From sequence record NC_054930.1: a stretch of 64,000 nt of DNA. One strand, written 5' to 3'. This DNA is from Escherichia phage PP01. The notes beneath the pieces were generated by a model. The model was not told the DNA's origin, made no database searches, and saw only the letters and a list, made by a program, of their open reading frames with translations. The position numbers and the translations under genes were made by a program. Position 1 is the first letter of the stretch. Each line of letters starts with the position of its first letter. This document shows, in pieces, positions 24,757 to 30,988 of this stretch.

Positions 24757-24760
24757 CAAT

Positions 24761-24778
24761 GGGGACCTTTCGGTCCCC
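24761..24778. terminator. Hairpin GGGGACC-uuuc-GGUCCCC followed by a U-run, between convergent genes 54 and alt.-3
   Basis: 7-bp inverted repeat. Confidence 0.65.
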
Positions 24779-24784
24779 GTGTTT

Positions 24785-25075
24785 TTATTTACGGAATGAA
24801 ATAAAAGCAGCAACTGAAGCAACTAAACTGTCTTCAATATAAACTTCAATTTTTACCGGAGCTTCTGACTCAAATTTACCTGTTACTACACCTTGGAAAA
24901 TGCTTTCAGTCTGCTCTGGCTTTGAAAAATTTTCAGAAGGAAAAATTCCGAACTTTTTATCTGTTCCAAAAATTTTGATAAATTCATCATAAACTGCTTC
25001 ATTAAAAGCGTTATCAGCAGGAATAACGCCTTCAACTACGAGTTCTTGACCTAAAAAGCGCAAAGAAGATTTCAT
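24785..25075 (-). CDS. alt.-3: Hypothetical protein (T4 alt.-3 position)
   Basis: 96 aa; preceded by an early promoter and a GAGGA RBS. Confidence 0.75.
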   Translation of the reverse strand: MKSSLRFLGQELVVEGVIPADNAFNEAVYDEFIKIFGTDKKFGIFPSENFSKPEQTESIFQGVVTGKFESEAPVKIEVYIEDSLVASVAAFISFRK

Positions 25076-25082
25076 TTTGTGT

Positions 25083-25136
25083 TCCTCATGTTATGTCAGT
25101 AAGATTATTATAACACAACACGAGGGACTTGTAAAC
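25083..25136 (-). promoter_or_regulatory. T4-type early promoter plus leader (-35 GTTTACA, 17-bp spacer, -10 TATAAT, SD GAGGA); copy A of a 54-bp exact repeat
   Basis: Minus-strand reading GTTTACAAGTCCCTCGTGTTGTGTTATAATAATCTTACTGACATAACATGAGGA; identical to 40667-40720. Confidence 0.8.
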
Positions 25137-27193
25137 TACATTTTGAACTTTTTAGACATTCCGTTGATGTTAACCAAAGAAGCCAAGATTTGAGAAACTT
25201 CATTTTCCTCTTCTTTTGATTCTTCTACAAGGAATTGATTAAATCCAGCCATTGGACGAACTTCACCAGTTTCCATTAGATGGTCGCCATCATATACCGA
25301 TTCTTTTAATTGTTCAGAAGGAGGAACGATTGTGCCTTCGATTAAATACTTATTATAAGCAGTTTCTTTCATCATGTACGTACTCACTTTATTAATCTTC
25401 AGCAAAATTCCACGCGGTAAAATAACTTCAGCTTCTGACGGAAATCCTGATAAATGCCCTGGAACGATAACTTTGATTCGCTCAGCTCCTTTAATTACCA
25501 TACCCACGCTAGTTTCAGCATCTTCATTCGCATAAGCAGAATGACTGCCCATATGCATTAAATCTTCAGCATCAACGGAACCTTCTCCTTCACCAGAAAA
25601 TACTGCACCGGAATCATCTAGAGCCATATAGTTTTTACCATACTCACCGAAGATATTTGGTTTAAGCGATGTGGATACGAAGTTCTTGAAATAGAACATT
25701 TTATTTTCAATATTATGACGTAAAGTTTTAAAGGTAACTTCTTGTCCACGGTAAAGTGTAGTTCCTGGAGGAAGAACTGATCCTTTGGCAAAGGCAGAAT
25801 CCATTGTCTCGATGTGTTTAATAGCTCGTTCCATGTATTCTTCACGTGTAGAATCCGGTTTACCTAAAAGGAACGAGTTCATTTCAACATATGAATCTGC
25901 ACAATAATCTTCAATTACATCAGACTCAGCCTGAGTTAATCCTTTTGGAGTTACTTCAGTACTTGCATATTCATACGCTTGAGAAGCAGACTCATTAATC
26001 AATTTATAAACGCCATTCATGACAAATTGAATAATAGCTACCTTTTCATCTGGCGTGGCTTTAGAACCTTTAACTAAATCATTGACGATTTTCTTAATAA
26101 CATCAAAGCTATTAGAAATATTAATGTCAGCAAGATCGCTTAAAATTTTATCAGTTTTATAATCAAAAAATTCTTTATTCTTTAAATATTCTTGAGAACC
26201 TTGATATGTTATATCGCTCTGTAACTTGATAGATGGATCACGTAAACGTGCATGAGCCAATGCAATATGATTTCGGAAGCTTTCTAGTTCATAATCACTA
26301 GATTTAAAACGAGAAGCACTTCTCATACCACCGATAGCTCCTTTGCTGAAGTTTGAACCAACCTGAATAACGCCGGAGTTCATTGGTCCTTCTGCTTTAT
26401 ATACCGGAACTTTAGATTCAAACTCTTGGTATTTCTTAGCAGCGAAGCTATCACCCTGAAGTGAAGCATCGACGGTAGAGTATTGAGCTTGTGCTGCTAA
26501 TCGACGACTAATTTTAGTTTTCTGAATAACAGCTTGATCCGTGCGCTTATCATTTTCTAAAGCAATAGAAGCGGCAACAGCGACAGCTTTAGGAACAGCA
26601 TTACCTGTTTTAACATCTACATAAACATCACCAACCTTTGATTCAACTTTTGTGAATAACTCAGTTGAAATAGGAGGTACACCTGGAATGTCTTCTAAAT
26701 TGGCATTTTTACGGTAAACCATAATATATGCATATTTCTTATCATAGTCCCAGATTTCCTTTAAAAGAACATATCGACCTGCTCCTTTAGTACGTACTAA
26801 ACGGTCGGCAATAACTTGCATTTGACGAGCTGCGCCATTTGTTTTACTCTTTAGTACGCGGAATAAGCATGCGTCAATTTTGTACTGTTTCATTGTCTGA
26901 AGAGCAGTATCAAAAACCGCATTAATGACACCAATTGGATTTCCACCCAAGTTTTTAAGTTTAACTAATGATAGTTTCTCATTAACACCTATCATTACGA
27001 TATGCATCATTTTATCGCCTGGCTTAACGTTTTTATTCGTATCACCGCCAGAGGTGTATGTACAAAATCTAAATCCAGGAAGCACGCTTTCTTCGCCTGC
27101 TTGAATAGCAAAAATTTGAGGTATTTTATGCTTAGGATTTAAGTTAACAACCGGCGCCGAAGCGCCGTCAAATAATTCTGTAATAAGTTCCAT
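25136..27193 (-). CDS. Alt-family ADP-ribosyltransferase, paralog 1 (685 aa)
   Basis: N-terminus MELITELFD; ART signature YRGQ ... FVSTSL ... SEAEVILPRG (Arg, S-T-S, E-x-E); paralogous to the adjacent ORF. Confidence 0.88.
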   Translation of the reverse strand: MELITELFDGASAPVVNLNPKHKIPQIFAIQAGEESVLPGFRFCTYTSGGDTNKNVKPGDKMMHIVMIGVNEKLSLVKLKNLGGNPIGVINAVFDTALQTMKQYKIDACLFRVLKSKTNGAARQMQVIADRLVRTKGAGRYVLLKEIWDYDKKYAYIMVYRKNANLEDIPGVPPISTELFTKVESKVGDVYVDVKTGNAVPKAVAVAASIALENDKRTDQAVIQKTKISRRLAAQAQYSTVDASLQGDSFAAKKYQEFESKVPVYKAEGPMNSGVIQVGSNFSKGAIGGMRSASRFKSSDYELESFRNHIALAHARLRDPSIKLQSDITYQGSQEYLKNKEFFDYKTDKILSDLADINISNSFDVIKKIVNDLVKGSKATPDEKVAIIQFVMNGVYKLINESASQAYEYASTEVTPKGLTQAESDVIEDYCADSYVEMNSFLLGKPDSTREEYMERAIKHIETMDSAFAKGSVLPPGTTLYRGQEVTFKTLRHNIENKMFYFKNFVSTSLKPNIFGEYGKNYMALDDSGAVFSGEGEGSVDAEDLMHMGSHSAYANEDAETSVGMVIKGAERIKVIVPGHLSGFPSEAEVILPRGILLKINKVSTYMMKETAYNKYLIEGTIVPPSEQLKESVYDGDHLMETGEVRPMAGFNQFLVEESKEEENEVSQILASLVNINGMSKKFKM

Positions 27194-27196
27194 GAT

Positions 27197-29290
27197 TTAT
27201 CCTTGAACGAACTTGTAAGGCATGTTTGTAATATCTATGCAAGACGCAATAATTCCAAGAGATGATTCTACTTTCTGTTTAATATTTGATGAAACAAATG
27301 ATGCAAAGTCAACTCTGTCTTCTATTTCAATATCATCTGTCATTGCAACTACTTCGCCGGTTTCCATTAGACGGTCACCGTCATAAATTACTGATTCGGT
27401 GAGTTCTTCCGTAGTCATAACTTCAGCTTGAATGAGTTTTGTATTATTAGATGTTGTTCCGTCATTATTAGAAGCATCAGTTATTTTATTAACTTTGACC
27501 ATCAATCCGCGTGGTAGAATAACTTCAGCTTCTGTTGCTATTCCGAGACTTCCTGGATATACAACATTAACTTTATGAGCTCCATCAATTGCCCATCCTA
27601 TTTGAACTTTAACGTATTCAGGATTTTCTTTATACGCTCTTATTTCGTTTGGATTGATAGTTATTCCTTCTTCATTTTTATCAACTGTTAATTCATTACG
27701 AGCTTCTGGTTCTAAAAGACCTATACCAGCATGTGTAATTCCAAAACGTCCAAAAATGATAGGAGTTAAAGAAGTAGATACAAAATTTCTGAAATAGAAC
27801 ACTTTATTTTTAACTAGTGCTTCGTATATAGGAGCAGTCATGCTTTGAGCACGATAAACTGTAATGCCTTCTGGTATACGGTCACCATTTTCAAAAGCTG
27901 AATCTAAATTATTTATCGCAGATTCAATTTCTTTTTCACTCATTACATCATATCGTTCTGGATTGTAGCGGCCTAAAAGAAGATTATTGATGTCAGTATA
28001 TCCTGATCCACAATACTCTCTAATGCCGCGCTTTTGCGATGGAGTATATTTAGAACCATCACGTGCAATGGTAATATCAATCATTGGACCTGCACCAATT
28101 CCAGAAAAGCTATAAATCATTCGTTTGAGGAATTTAGTTTTTGCTGCGTTCCAGGAATTTTTAGTTATTTCTTCCCAGACTTCATCTGGCTGCCCTTTAC
28201 GAGTTTTATTATGTTTATCAAGCCAATTATCTTTATATTCTTCAAAGAATTGATTAACAGCTGCTGCGTATTTCTCTAAACATTTTATTGAAGTAGTTGG
28301 TTCATTTTTAATCGCATTAAGAATTACATCTTTAATTTTTTCAGAAACTTCATTAACCTCACTTTTTGAAAAGAATTTATAATCATAGTGAAGTTCATCT
28401 GCAGTTCCTTCAGCAATAATTTTTGCTGCCTTAGTTTTAGAAGCTAATGAATTAATTCCAAGTTTCATTTCTTCTGCTTCAGGAATTAAAGGAGCTGTAG
28501 CAGGTTTATTGAAATTAGCTGCGGTAGATTCATACTTCTGGAATAATTCACTTTCAAATCTAGAAGATTCTAATGATTGACTTTGCGCAATTGCTCTACG
28601 GGAAATTTTAACTTTAACGATTACAGCTTGGTCAGAACGTTTATCATTTTCTTGTGCAATAGAAGCAGCAATTGCCTCATTTTTAGTTACTTGAGCTCCA
28701 GTATCTTTATTAATATAAACATCGCCGACTTTCGATTCAACTTTAGTAAAGAGCTCGGTACTAATTTCCGGAACTCCTGGAATGTCTTCTAGTGATACAT
28801 TTTTGCGATGTATAAGAATATATGCATACTTTTTATCATAATCCCAGAGTTCCTTAAGAAGGACGTATCTGCCACCTGAACGACTACGGATAAGTCTATC
28901 AGCAATAACTTGAATTTGTCGAGCTTGACCAGCAGTTTTAGACTTAAGAATACGAAGCATGCAGGCATCAATTTTATACTGACGCATTGTTTGCATTGCA
29001 ATAGTAAAAACTGAATTGATATAATTAATTGGGCTTGGACCGAGACCTTTTAATTTAGCAATTGAACCTTTAGCAGTTAATGTAAAAGGAACAATATGCA
29101 TCATTTTATCGCCCATTTTTAAATCGCGATTAGTATCACCTCCAGATGTATAGGTACATAAACGAAAGCCTGGTTGTTCAATTGCGTCATCAACGTGAAC
29201 TGAAAAAATTTGTGGTATTTTCTTCTTTGGATTTAAGTTTGTAATCGGAAGAGTAGTATCTTCGTCAAATAATTCTGTAATAAGTTCCAT
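27197..29290 (-). CDS. alt: Alt-family ADP-ribosyltransferase, paralog 2 (697 aa from the second ATG), RNA polymerase ADP-ribosylase-like
   Basis: N-terminus MELITELFDEDTTLPITNLNPKKK; ART signature YRAQ ... FVSTSL ... TEAEVILPRG; GAGG RBS 6 nt before the second ATG. Confidence 0.88.
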   Translation of the reverse strand: MELITELFDEDTTLPITNLNPKKKIPQIFSVHVDDAIEQPGFRLCTYTSGGDTNRDLKMGDKMMHIVPFTLTAKGSIAKLKGLGPSPINYINSVFTIAMQTMRQYKIDACMLRILKSKTAGQARQIQVIADRLIRSRSGGRYVLLKELWDYDKKYAYILIHRKNVSLEDIPGVPEISTELFTKVESKVGDVYINKDTGAQVTKNEAIAASIAQENDKRSDQAVIVKVKISRRAIAQSQSLESSRFESELFQKYESTAANFNKPATAPLIPEAEEMKLGINSLASKTKAAKIIAEGTADELHYDYKFFSKSEVNEVSEKIKDVILNAIKNEPTTSIKCLEKYAAAVNQFFEEYKDNWLDKHNKTRKGQPDEVWEEITKNSWNAAKTKFLKRMIYSFSGIGAGPMIDITIARDGSKYTPSQKRGIREYCGSGYTDINNLLLGRYNPERYDVMSEKEIESAINNLDSAFENGDRIPEGITVYRAQSMTAPIYEALVKNKVFYFRNFVSTSLTPIIFGRFGITHAGIGLLEPEARNELTVDKNEEGITINPNEIRAYKENPEYVKVQIGWAIDGAHKVNVVYPGSLGIATEAEVILPRGLMVKVNKITDASNNDGTTSNNTKLIQAEVMTTEELTESVIYDGDRLMETGEVVAMTDDIEIEDRVDFASFVSSNIKQKVESSLGIIASCIDITNMPYKFVQG

Positions 29291-29324
29291 CATATCCTCT
29301 CTAGTGTTTATTCTATTTATAAAA

Positions 29325-29348
29325 TTAAAGGCCCGAAGGCCTTTAATA
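29325..29348 (-). terminator. Hairpin AAGGCC-UUCG-GGCCUU (minus-strand reading) between the 62-aa ORF and alt
   Basis: Inverted repeat seen. Confidence 0.4.
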
Positions 29349-29531
29349 ATCTAGTGGTAAGAGAGTACGGTATATTTCAAACTTTGGCCCTTTTTCATAG
29401 GCATCAAATGTTTCTGTAAATTTATTATAAGCATACGCATCTACAAATTCGAGAATGACTTGCGATACCGAAGTAGAAACATCTCCACCTTCTTTTTGAG
29501 CTATAACAATTGTTTCTAAGTAAGCTTTCAT
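29343..29531 (-). CDS. Hypothetical 62-aa protein, translationally coupled to DNA ligase (ATGA overlap)
   Basis: ATG at 29531-29529 overlaps the ligase TGA stop. Confidence 0.5.
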   Translation of the reverse strand: MKAYLETIVIAQKEGGDVSTSVSQVILEFVDAYAYNKFTETFDAYEKGPKFEIYRTLLPLDY

Positions 29532-30988
29532 AGACCAGTTACCTCATGAAAATCACCAAATACATCCTCGAATGTATTAGCTTTAGTTTTATCTTCACGT
29601 AAACGAATCGCAATCGGAAGAAATAATTTAACGTAATCAGTGCGGCCATCAGATTTTAACCAACCATTGCATTCGCACTCTAGAATTTTTCCAATATAAT
29701 AATTTTGGTTTTCCATAATGCGAGTACGGTCAAGTTCATGTGATTTTACACCGGCTTTATCTTTTAAGCCTGAACCTGCATTTACTTTAATTTTTCCACA
29801 CTCTGATTCAAGAATAAATCCACCCGCTTTAGTAGGGTCTTTACGGTGAGGATAAATTCCTACAATTTTTAAATCAACATCAATTACTTCTTTAAATTTA
29901 TAGAGATTTTTTGAACGAGCATTTTCCCACAATCCATCGGTATTTTTGAGAATAATACCTTCAAGACCTTGGTCAATATATTTTTTATAAATTACCTTAG
30001 CTTCATCTAGGTTATTTACTACCTGGTTTTCAATTAAAATTACTTTATCATATCCTGATGCCATTTGTTCTAGTTTAGAAAAACGTACATCATATTTTAA
30101 ACGAAACGCCGGAAGACCGTATATTTCTACCAACGGAACATAATCCCAGACCTGAAACTTCATGCATTTGGCTTCTTTTTCTGAAATAGTTCCCTTTAAA
30201 GATTTATTGGCGATTCCATTAGAAGCAGTACGAGATTCAGCTACTTCGGCAAACTCTTTAGCTTTACTGATTTCAGGAGCATCAAAAAGAAAATCTAGGC
30301 CTTCTGGTTCCTTTTCAACTTGCTCATGGTATACCAATTCGCCATCAATTAACACACCTTCTGGATGAATCTGGCGGGCTTCAGCAGTCATTTTGATTAA
30401 CTCTTCCTTAAGAAGATCTAATCCTAAATATTCATTACCAGCTCGCGATAAAAGACGAACATCATCTAATTCATCGCCTCGGACTTCAGCAAAACACCGA
30501 GCTCCATCAGCTTTTAACTGTGCAAAAGCTGGAAACTTGATATTCTTACTAATGCCTTTTTCATCATAAGAACTTGCAAGCATTTGAGGTTGTTCAGGAA
30601 TTAAACCTGGCCAAACTTTGTTTGCAATAGATACTGAAGCACCGCATTCAAGGTCTCGCATCATAACTCGACGCAAAACTTCAACATCATCCTTTTTACC
30701 ATCGGTGATATATCCAGTTAATTCCTCAATTGCTGCATTGCCAGTTAATTTCCGAGTAGCTAACGTGAATTCAATGAAGTCAAGCATATCGGTAATAGTC
30801 AACATTCCAAAACTCTGGGTAGCAATACCAGGTTTAGGCCATTTCTTGATATAATATTGTAACCCACGAGAATAAGTCAGACGATATACTCGTTTAAGCA
30901 ATTCATTATCTTTATTCTTTTCAAGAATTGCTTGCTTCTGTTTAGTTGATCCAATAGATGCTATTTCATTCAGAATTTTAAGAATCAT
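29528..30988 (-). CDS. 30: ATP-dependent DNA ligase gp30
   Basis: 486 aa; adenylation motif KADGAR; N-terminus MILKILNEIASIGSTKQKQ. Confidence 0.97.
   Translation of the reverse strand: MILKILNEIASIGSTKQKQAILEKNKDNELLKRVYRLTYSRGLQYYIKKWPKPGIATQSFGMLTITDMLDFIEFTLATRKLTGNAAIEELTGYITDGKKDDVEVLRRVMMRDLECGASVSIANKVWPGLIPEQPQMLASSYDEKGISKNIKFPAFAQLKADGARCFAEVRGDELDDVRLLSRAGNEYLGLDLLKEELIKMTAEARQIHPEGVLIDGELVYHEQVEKEPEGLDFLFDAPEISKAKEFAEVAESRTASNGIANKSLKGTISEKEAKCMKFQVWDYVPLVEIYGLPAFRLKYDVRFSKLEQMASGYDKVILIENQVVNNLDEAKVIYKKYIDQGLEGIILKNTDGLWENARSKNLYKFKEVIDVDLKIVGIYPHRKDPTKAGGFILESECGKIKVNAGSGLKDKAGVKSHELDRTRIMENQNYYIGKILECECNGWLKSDGRTDYVKLFLPIAIRLREDKTKANTFEDVFGDFHEVTGL

Follow-up and report, generated by a model that had tools for sequence, protein, structure and literature searches.

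If a bacteriophage carries two copies of a gene whose product may be delivered into the host along with its DNA, is the second copy a spare, a relic, or an enzyme with work of its own? The question is raised by a 64,000-nt stretch of the genome of Escherichia phage PP01 (NC_054930.1; hereafter the window), in which two Alt-type ADP-ribosyltransferase (ART) genes lie side by side. Most of what is known of Alt biochemistry comes from T4, where the second copy is broken. About 40 copies of T4 Alt occupy each capsid and are injected with the DNA, and the enzyme ADP-ribosylates the alpha subunit of host RNA polymerase at Arg265. A second Alt enzyme, probably also injected, would merit experiments, with regard both to host takeover and to strains used in phage therapy. 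We call the upstream gene AltA and the downstream gene AltB (Table 1).

Table 1. Features of the tandem alt locus, in window coordinates, listed in the direction of transcription of the pair.
Feature	Position	Strand	Basis or remark
alt.1 homolog, 62 aa, upstream neighbour	29343..29531	-	ORF and Pfam (Phage_blade, PF24647)
Terminator-like GC-rich hairpin aaaggccttcgggccttt then T-run, between alt.1 homolog and late promoter	29327..29344	-	conserved in T4
T4-type late promoter TATAAATA, 24 nt upstream of AltA ATG	29314..29321	-	same element upstream of T4 alt
AltA, upstream Alt-type ADP-ribosyltransferase gene	27197..29290	-	ORF list; 697 aa, stop in coordinates
AltA putative N-terminal propeptide MELITE, gp21 site I-T-E, cut after E6	29273..29290	-	motif; T4 Alt site published
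AltA catalytic Arg motif YRAQ, aa 479-482	27845..27856	-	aligns with VYR of CDTa
AltA FVSTSL (S-T-S), aa 503-508	27767..27784	-	sequence motif
AltA EAEVILPRG (E-x-E), aa 587-595	27506..27532	-	aligns with EYEVLL of CDTa
AltA putative C-terminal gp21 motif E-L-T-E/S	27392..27406	-	motif; equivalent to T4 LTE-619
AltB, downstream Alt-type ADP-ribosyltransferase gene	25136..27193	-	ORF list; 685 aa
AltB putative N-terminal propeptide MELITE, gp21 site I-T-E	27176..27193	-	motif; E6 invariant
5' copy of 9-bp deletion repeat, CTAAAGAGT here	26846..26854	-	8/9 match; CTAAAAAGT in T2 and vB_EcoM_C2-3
AltB catalytic Arg motif YRGQ, aa 481-484	25742..25753	-	motif and alignment; R482 invariant
AltB FVSTSL, aa 505-510	25664..25681	-	motif and alignment; S507 and S509 invariant
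AltB EAEVILPRG, E587-x-E589	25409..25435	-	motif and alignment; both E invariant
AltB putative C-terminal gp21-type motif Q-L-K-E/S (E631)	25298..25312	-	motif; E631 invariant
3' repeat copy CTAAAAAGT, AltB codon 680	25147..25155	-	sequence comparison with T4
Sigma-70-like promoter ahead of alt.-3 homolog	25135..25107		
alt.-3 homolog, 96 aa, downstream neighbour	24785..25075	-	ORF and Pfam (DUF5498)
Bidirectional terminator after alt.-3 homolog	24759-24780		

An earlier note had taken the two adjacent ORFs for paralogs that both begin MELITELFD and that diverge mainly in their middle regions, and each of these points holds. BLASTP aligns the proteins over their full length at 41% identity (E = 4e-161), the common N-terminus can be read in both translations, and the divergence was correctly placed because regional identity is lowest in the middle (15% over residues 236–410, vs. 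68% over N-terminal residues 1–235, 33% in the ART domain and 44% in the C-terminal tail). A second divergent patch falls within the ART domain, from the STS motif to E-x-E, where identity is almost nil. Both genes are under strong purifying selection, with dN/dS of 0.024–0.052 for AltA (relative to T2 and NBG2) and 0.027–0.048 for AltB (about 0.04 over the whole gene); Shigella phage sb4 was left out of this set because its alt region falls into many short ORFs and looks like an error-rich assembly. From its first in-frame ATG, the AltA frame spans 27197–29293 (698 aa), but we rejected that start in favor of the ATG at 29290, which is better spaced from the GAGG Shine-Dalgarno sequence and is the start used in RefSeq and for T4 alt. 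No further ART paralogs and no ModA/ModB homologs were found within the window.

Both copies also retain the complete ART signature, as had been claimed: The motifs YR[AG]Q, FVSTSL and [ST]EAEVILPRG occur in each, and across an alignment of 20 A- and B-type sequences the arginine, both serines and both glutamates (R482, S507, S509, E587 and E589 in AltB) are invariant, such that neither copy lacks catalytic residues. In comparison with CDTa, CPILE-a and a C3-like toxin, the arginine and E-x-E fall on the YR and E/Q-x-E positions. Pfam ADPrib_exo_Tox (PF03496) matches AltA at E = 1.8e-37 (129 bits) and AltB at E = 2.5e-20 (73 bits), PHROG 802 (‘Alt-like RNA polymerase ADP-ribosyltransferase’) covers both ORFs end to end (E = 2.7e-255 and 8.4e-272), and Alt homologs bear the precomputed domain PF26846. 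PDB searches returned no solved Alt structure, nor any match to AltB as a single sequence, and AltB was placed structurally by profile search and Foldseek: The ART domain of its AF2 model matches Vis, C3, CDTa and VIP2 (probability 1.0), and matches to the whole model were dominated by this same domain. By the R-S-ExE domain, the N-terminal domain, the gp21 motifs and the locus, both proteins are assigned to the Alt family.

The suggestion that I-T-E (residues 4–6) is a site for the gp21 prohead protease matches published work on T4 Alt, which is cut at ITE-6 and LTE-619 (PMC5694885). A second site is kept in both PP01 proteins (LTE in AltA, LKE in AltB), and E6 and E631 are invariant across the 20 aligned sequences of both types. 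In the AF2 model of AltB, the predicted disordered ends (1–11 and 629–685) coincide with both propeptides, and pLDDT is below 50 for residues 629–656 in the tail past E631. Packaging and injection of AltB are most likely. The six-residue propeptide MELITE may itself be the capsid-targeting signal, a job that the N-domain or the C-terminal propeptide could also do. In the literature searched, we found no virion proteomics of any two-Alt phage, no report of AltB virion presence, cleavage or enzymatic activity, and no AltB biochemistry or targets; nothing turned up on the Alt and internal proteins of T2/T6, and the Alt papers that we found deal with T4, in which AltB is not intact.

The arrangement of signals around the pair points to co-transcription of AltA and AltB as late genes. 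The sole late promoter, TATAAATA, stands ahead of AltA, and a separate promoter for AltB was rejected, since no TATAAATA precedes that gene and just 3 nt separate it from AltA. Sigma-70-like matches inside the alt genes were no commoner than in shuffled sequence. A conserved terminator upstream of alt has been noted previously (Nolan 2006). The order of the locus, DNA ligase/alt.1 – Alt pair – alt.-3/gene 54, agrees with that of T4.

How, then, does the two-gene state relate to that of T4? The T4 record contains one full-length alt and not two equivalent genes, together with the short ORFs alt.-1 and alt.-2, as the earlier note had it, and its RefSeq annotation describes these ORFs as ‘an old duplication of the first part of gene alt’. 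That description, along with the 68% identity between the N-terminal domains of AltA and AltB, would suit a history in which the PP01 pair arose by recent, lineage-specific duplication and alt.-1/alt.-2 by an independent partial duplication of the alt 5' end. However, the T4 remnant is closer to the 5' end of AltB (94.3% nucleotide identity) than to T4 alt (65.3%), and the PHROGs built on alt.-1 and alt.-2 score 2e-40 and 3e-38 against AltB vs. 1e-21 and 2.5e-19 against AltA. Moreover, the 3' end of the remnant carries the last 14 nt of AltB and its stop codon in a shifted reading frame, and a 9-bp repeat marks the join. This repeat, CTAAAAAGT, is still present twice in the intact AltB of T2 and vB_EcoM_C2-3 (at nt 340 and nt 2039), reproducing the T4 junction, and T4 lacks the intervening 1,699 bp. 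A T4-type phage with an intact AltB also exists: vB_EcoM_C2-3 combines a T4-type Alt (98.5% amino acid identity) with AltB, i.e., the pre-deletion state, and B-type orthologs are present in Dhakavirus and Moonvirus.

From these comparisons, alt.-1/alt.-2 are the 5' end of AltB, which remained after the 9-bp repeats had recombined to delete 1,699 bp and a single nucleotide had shifted the frame, and the duplication history is refuted by the identity of the remnant, the trees (see below) and the repeat junction. The proposal that the two-gene state is ancestral to that of T4 is borne out by the same identities and junction, and T4 is the odd one out among the T-even phages because a deletion of about 1.7 kb destroyed its second copy. 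This exact mechanism, a by-product of the analysis, corrects the ‘partial duplication’ note of the T4 record; Nolan 2006 was the only literature that we found on alt.-1/alt.-2.

The tandem pair is not new, since hundreds of genomes have it annotated and it has already appeared in print. Tandem alt duplications, including a full-length one in 44RR, were noted in 2006 (Nolan 2006), and this very pair appears in a 2026 paper, the Tequatrovirus genes being described as paralogs with 43% identity (PMC13600099). RefSeq names both genes Alt-like, and the pairs of other Tequatrovirus phages (T2, PV648363; vB_EcoM_NBG2, NC_054925; Shfl2; HY01; 6phi13/SHFML-11; and others), both of whose genes are annotated ‘Alt-like RNA polymerase ADP-ribosyltransferase’, are the same genes (97–98% nucleotide identity over 4.9 kb) with no material difference from those of PP01. 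AltB at 90% or higher amino acid identity occurs in about 400 deposited phage records, 91 of 496 matching records have a contiguous T4-type junction, and about four-fifths of deposited T4-group genomes have an intact second enzyme, T2 counting in both the first and the last of these sets. As judged from these sequences, Tequatrovirus ancestrally had the tandem pair, and most of its members still do.

Pairs also occupy the same genomic position elsewhere in the Straboviridae, in Dhakavirus (IME341/JS10), Moonvirus (CF1), Biquartavirus (L9-6/44RR) and Krischvirus, although the second copy is split into two ORFs in CF1 and is a 274-aa ART-only ORF in Krischvirus. In trees of the middle and ART domains (14 sequences, neighbor-joining only), AltB clusters with the B-type second copies of Dhakavirus and Moonvirus, and the A-type copies fall together with AltA, T4 Alt and Mosigvirus Alt, with 100% bootstrap support for the core clades; the two types are thus older than the genus Tequatrovirus. 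Trees and regional identities also show that the N-terminal domain tracks phage genus (42–45% identity to that of PP01 in other Straboviridae genera), whereas in the middle and catalytic modules similarity follows paralog type. The ART domain of AltA is 84–96% identical in nucleotides to a Dhakavirus copy, vs. 50–66% for the N-domain, and the ART domain of the first Dhakavirus copy is 95% identical to that of AltA. A further by-product is evidence for the exchange of middle and catalytic modules between phage genera. That N-domains cluster by genus may be due to gene conversion or to their co-adaptation with the core of each phage.

Given an old and intact pair, AltB might still be a redundant second dose, packaged and injected to act on the targets of AltA (RNA polymerase alpha and other host proteins), and its loss would have cost T4 nothing. 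The likeness of catalytic residues, cleavage motifs and N-domain in the two proteins speaks for this, as does the viability of T4 and about 90 other deposited genomes that have lost AltB; T4 alt itself is reported to be non-essential (PMC9026906). Yet across genera the A and B types persist as distinct orthologous lines under strong purifying selection, which plain redundancy would not predict, and the low identity of the middle and ART domains, above all in the STS-to-ExE loop, also counts against it; we consider it unlikely. Far less probable is that AltB has no catalytic activity and is retained as an internal head protein for a structural or decoy role. Its Pfam score is below that of AltA and its single-sequence PDB search came back empty, but its R, STS and ExE residues are all invariant, its predicted ART fold confidently matches active toxins, and its low dN/dS extends across the whole gene.

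The explanation that we favor, and consider quite likely as a whole, is that AltA and AltB are an ancestral pair of functional, co-transcribed late genes for injected, arginine-specific Alt mono-ADP-ribosyltransferases, from which the T4 state is derived; we infer activity, packaging and injection of AltB, and distinct targets. Each protein would begin with a propeptide of six residues that ends at the gp21 site I-T-E, followed by a genus-specific N-terminal domain of about 230 aa, kept between the paralogs, that most likely places the protein in the prohead scaffolding core; next would come a helical middle region and an R-S-ExE ART domain, in both of which the paralogs have diverged strongly, and last a C-terminal tail removed at the second L-x-E site. 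Both proteins would most likely be built into the prohead, trimmed by gp21 and injected with the DNA, whereupon they would ADP-ribosylate host proteins. In related toxins, the loop between STS and E-x-E (the ARTT/PN loops) helps to choose the substrate. Because the paralogs diverge most in this loop and in the middle region, their target sets probably differ, although full overlap is also possible. More speculatively, the Alt locus may be a polymorphic-effector cassette, in which a genus-specific N-terminal ‘delivery’ domain, matched to the prohead core of its own phage, is joined to middle and ART ‘warhead’ modules that persist as A and B lineages and are swapped between genera; AltB would then modify some part of the host, perhaps of its defence or translation machinery, that T4 Alt leaves untouched. 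We offer this tentatively, as plausible but falling somewhat short of probable.

Among known systems to compare with the pair is T4 Alt (gpAlt, NP_049811), a packaged NAD:arginine mono-ADP-ribosyltransferase encoded at the same locus, between gene 30/alt.1 and alt.-3/gene 54, and having in common with AltA and AltB the late promoter, MELITE, the L-x-E gp21 motifs and the R-S-ExE residues. Its N-domain is 99% identical to that of AltA and 68% identical to that of AltB (about 50–82% in sliding windows). Overall identity between AltA and T4 Alt is 72%, and the two differ in their alleles of the middle (34%) and ART (64%) modules; AltB is a separate paralog (middle 15%, ART 33%), of which T4 retains just the broken remnant. 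T4 ModA and ModB are R-S-E clade ARTs of the same phage family (PMC5512222), but unlike Alt they are about 200 aa long, early, not packaged, encoded elsewhere and without the N-terminal Alt domain. The bacterial toxins C3, VIP2, CDTa, iota and Vis have the ART fold and catalytic motif positions in common with Alt, at just 16–20% identity, and rely on secretion or a binary-toxin pore rather than on delivery from a phage head.

The window is part of the genome of a T4-group (Tequatrovirus-like) phage, and the gene order around its alt locus is identical to that of T4, with genes 54 and 48 following on the plus strand beyond the alt.-3 homolog. An earlier note, made from the sequence alone, had read the upstream and downstream Alt-type ADP-ribosyltransferase (ART) genes, AltA and AltB, as adjacent paralogs. 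Their products align over the full length with 41% identity (E = 4e-161), which bears this out, and the coordinates, lengths, N-terminal sequence and motifs given for them were all correct; its interpretation is supported as well. Both proteins score well above threshold for the Pfam family ADPrib_exo_Tox and match PHROG 802 ('Alt-like RNA polymerase ADP-ribosyltransferase') along their whole length; the family is known, and the pair is an unremarkable, already annotated case of it. We found no further ART-like sequence in the window, including homologs of ModA and ModB.

Features of the alt locus in the window
Feature	Position	Strand	Basis or remark
DNA ligase (gene 30)	29528-30988	-	ORF and Pfam
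alt.1 homolog, 62 aa	29343-29531	-	Pfam Phage blade protein PF24647, E = 1.9e-29
T4 late promoter TATAAATA	29321..29314	-	24 nt ahead of AltA ATG
AltA, 697 aa	27197-29290	-	ORF and Pfam
AltB, 685 aa	25136-27193	-	ORF and Pfam
Sigma-70-type promoter	25107-25135	-	near-consensus, TTTACA-17-TATAAT with TG, 11/12 matches
alt.-3 homolog, 96 aa	24785-25075	-	DUF5498
Bidirectional GC-rich terminator hairpin	24759-24780		between alt.-3 homolog and gene 54

The tandem Alt arrangement, confirmed here, is already known and not new: in many RefSeq genomes both genes bear the name 'Alt-like RNA polymerase ADP-ribosyltransferase', and the classic phage T2 carries both. In 2006, Nolan et al. counted T4 alt.-1/alt.-2, together with a full-length copy in phage 44RR, among paralogous duplications of alt (PMC1524935), and a 2026 paper described two paralogous Alt-like proteins (43.3% identity) in a Tequatrovirus, suggesting an expanded target range (PMC13600099). 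For the exact mechanism of the T4 deletion, and for the discordance between the N-terminal domain and the catalytic module, we found no published account, and we regard both as incremental additions.

T4 itself has a single full-length alt followed by the short open reading frames alt.-1 and alt.-2, as the earlier note had stated. A note in the T4 GenBank record explains these two as an ancient duplication of the beginning of alt, a view that is contradicted by comparison with AltB: over the first ~350 nt of AltB, the alt.-1/alt.-2 DNA shares 94.3% identity with that gene versus 65.3% with T4 alt, and the PHROGs built on alt.-1 and alt.-2 match AltB at 2e-40 and 3e-38 versus AltA at 1e-21 and 2.5e-19. 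Relative to AltB, T4 has lost one nucleotide in an A-run (AATAAAAAC to AATAAAAC), and therefore alt.-1 stops and alt.-2 restarts. Window positions ~25156-26845 are missing from T4, and because the T4 junction, GTACTAAAAAGTTCAAAATGTAG, fuses AltB codon ~114 to codon 680, alt.-2 ends in the out-of-frame AltB tail (its last 14 nt and stop codon, read in another frame) and continues into the intergenic spacer. In the AltB genes of T2 and vB_EcoM_C2-3, the 9-mer CTAAAAAGT is present in exactly two copies, at nt 340 and nt 2039, and deleting the 1,699 bp between them, which is not a multiple of three, recreates the T4 sequence. The single-alt state of T4 is thus derived, and the earlier suggestion that a two-gene state is ancestral to it is upheld by both the AltB-like remnant and the recreated junction. 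The 5' repeat site of AltB in the window has 8/9 matches to the 9-mer. The locus of vB_EcoM_C2-3 (L012 2784-6899, OK076929), in which a T4-type Alt (98.5% aa) stands beside an intact AltB with both repeats, in effect represents what T4 was before the deletion.

At least 80% of the full 4.9-kb region is covered in 336 phage records (identity up to 98.1%), and AltB is found at no less than 90% amino acid identity in 400, phage T2 among them; only 91 of 496 matching records have the T4-type deletion junction as one contiguous stretch. Dhakavirus, Moonvirus, Biquartavirus and Krischvirus have tandem Alt genes too, and the one Mosigvirus and one Klebsiella phage genome examined carry a single copy. 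In Citrobacter phage CF1 (L005 4001-6123) the B-type second copy is broken into two overlapping open reading frames, and in Krischvirus Delraymugoa (L006 6053-6877) a 274-aa ART-only open reading frame follows the full-length Alt; these second copies are other decay or variant states. Shigella phage sb4 (L011, PQ666542), in which the alt (alt_1 to alt_4), ligase and gene 48 regions are all fragmented into many short open reading frames, looks like a frameshift-error-rich assembly rather than biology.

Neighbour-joining trees (200 bootstraps) were built domain by domain from the Alt proteins of the window, T4 (L001), Dhakavirus IME341 (L004), CF1 (L005) and loci L007-L010. In the trees of the middle region and ART domain, proteins sort by paralog type irrespective of genus: a first clade (100%; 49-83% with the Moonvirus second copy) holds AltB, T2 AltB and the Dhakavirus second copy, and a second (100%) holds AltA, T2 AltA, the Dhakavirus first copy, T4 Alt and Mosigvirus Alt. 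Such a grouping makes the A/B duplication older than these genera. In contrast, the tree of the N-terminal domain (235 aa) groups by genus, with all Tequatrovirus copies together (83%) and Dhakavirus with Mosigvirus (100%), which suggests that this domain has been homogenised within genomes, by gene conversion between tandem copies, or has co-evolved with the prohead core of each phage.

An exchange of modules is suggested by AltA, which is a mosaic rather than a plain counterpart of T4 Alt. Compared with T4 Alt (L001 5455-7503), AltA is 93-99% identical in nucleotides over codons 1-240 and the 3' end but 41-72% between them, and in amino acids 99% in the N-terminal domain but 64% in the ART domain; against the first Alt of Dhakavirus IME341 (L004 1913-3997) the relation is reversed (ART domain 95% aa, 84-96% nt; N-terminal domain 45% aa). 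Such a pattern suggests that genera have recently exchanged the catalytic module. Because more records have the T4-type middle and ART module (174) than have the deletion (91), Alt alleles and the state of AltB assort at least partly independently. To judge from these comparisons, the locus seems to combine a conserved delivery module with exchangeable catalytic modules.

Neither gene of the pair is a dead or decaying copy, a possibility excluded by the selection acting on both: dN/dS values (Nei-Gojobori, among the window, T2 and vB_EcoM_NBG2) of 0.027-0.048 for AltB and 0.024-0.052 for AltA indicate strong purifying selection. As had been claimed, both carry a complete ART signature, in that the catalytic arginine of YRGQ (R482, AltB numbering), the S-T-S serines (S507 and S509) and the E-x-E glutamates (E587 and E589) are invariant in a 20-sequence alignment that includes both types. 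In sequence and profile searches of solved structures, the family's YR and E-x-E line up with the corresponding catalytic positions of CDTa, CPILE-a and a C3-like enzyme, and the ART domain in the AltB AlphaFold2 model (mean pLDDT 72) is matched by Foldseek to Vis, C3, CDTa, VIP2 and Certhrax with probability 1.0. PF26846.1 and PF03496 are precomputed on all full-length Alt homologs (among homologs P0001-P0120); the former, which presumably covers the Alt N-terminal region, had no match to AltA or AltB in the Pfam-A copy used.

The paralogs differ mainly in the helical middle region (AltB 236-410), as first noticed, where identity is 15% versus 68% in the N-terminal domain (1-235), 33% in the ART domain (411-625) and 44% in the C-terminal tail. 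Within the ART domain, the 76-78 residues from FVSTSL to E-x-E are essentially unrelated, and in related toxins the loops just ahead of E-x-E contribute to substrate choice; it is therefore reasonable to suppose that AltA and AltB may have different targets, as the earlier note suggested.

The prohead protease gp21 cuts T4 Alt after ITE-6, as shown by mass spectrometry, and, unexpectedly, also after LTE-619, removing 63 C-terminal residues (PMC5694885). AltA and AltB both begin with MELITE, in agreement with the proposal that I-T-E is a gp21 site, and the motif equivalent to LTE-619 is ELTE|S in AltA and QLKE|S in AltB; E6 and E631 do not vary across the family alignment. Both proteins thus have the sequence features that accompany prohead incorporation and processing. 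The two propeptides coincide with the stretches of low confidence at the ends of the AltB model, 1-11 and 629-685. AltB is probably packaged, and the six-residue propeptide may itself be the targeting signal.

The late promoter sits just past a GC-rich hairpin with a T-run, an arrangement that matches the one upstream of alt in T4. AltB starts 3 nt beyond the AltA stop and no late promoter of its own was found for it, and the simplest reading of the two genes is a single late transcription unit. The sigma-70-type promoter that precedes the alt.-3 homolog directly adjoins the AltB stop, and at the other end of the locus the 5' end of the alt.1 homolog and the end of the DNA ligase gene share 4 nt.
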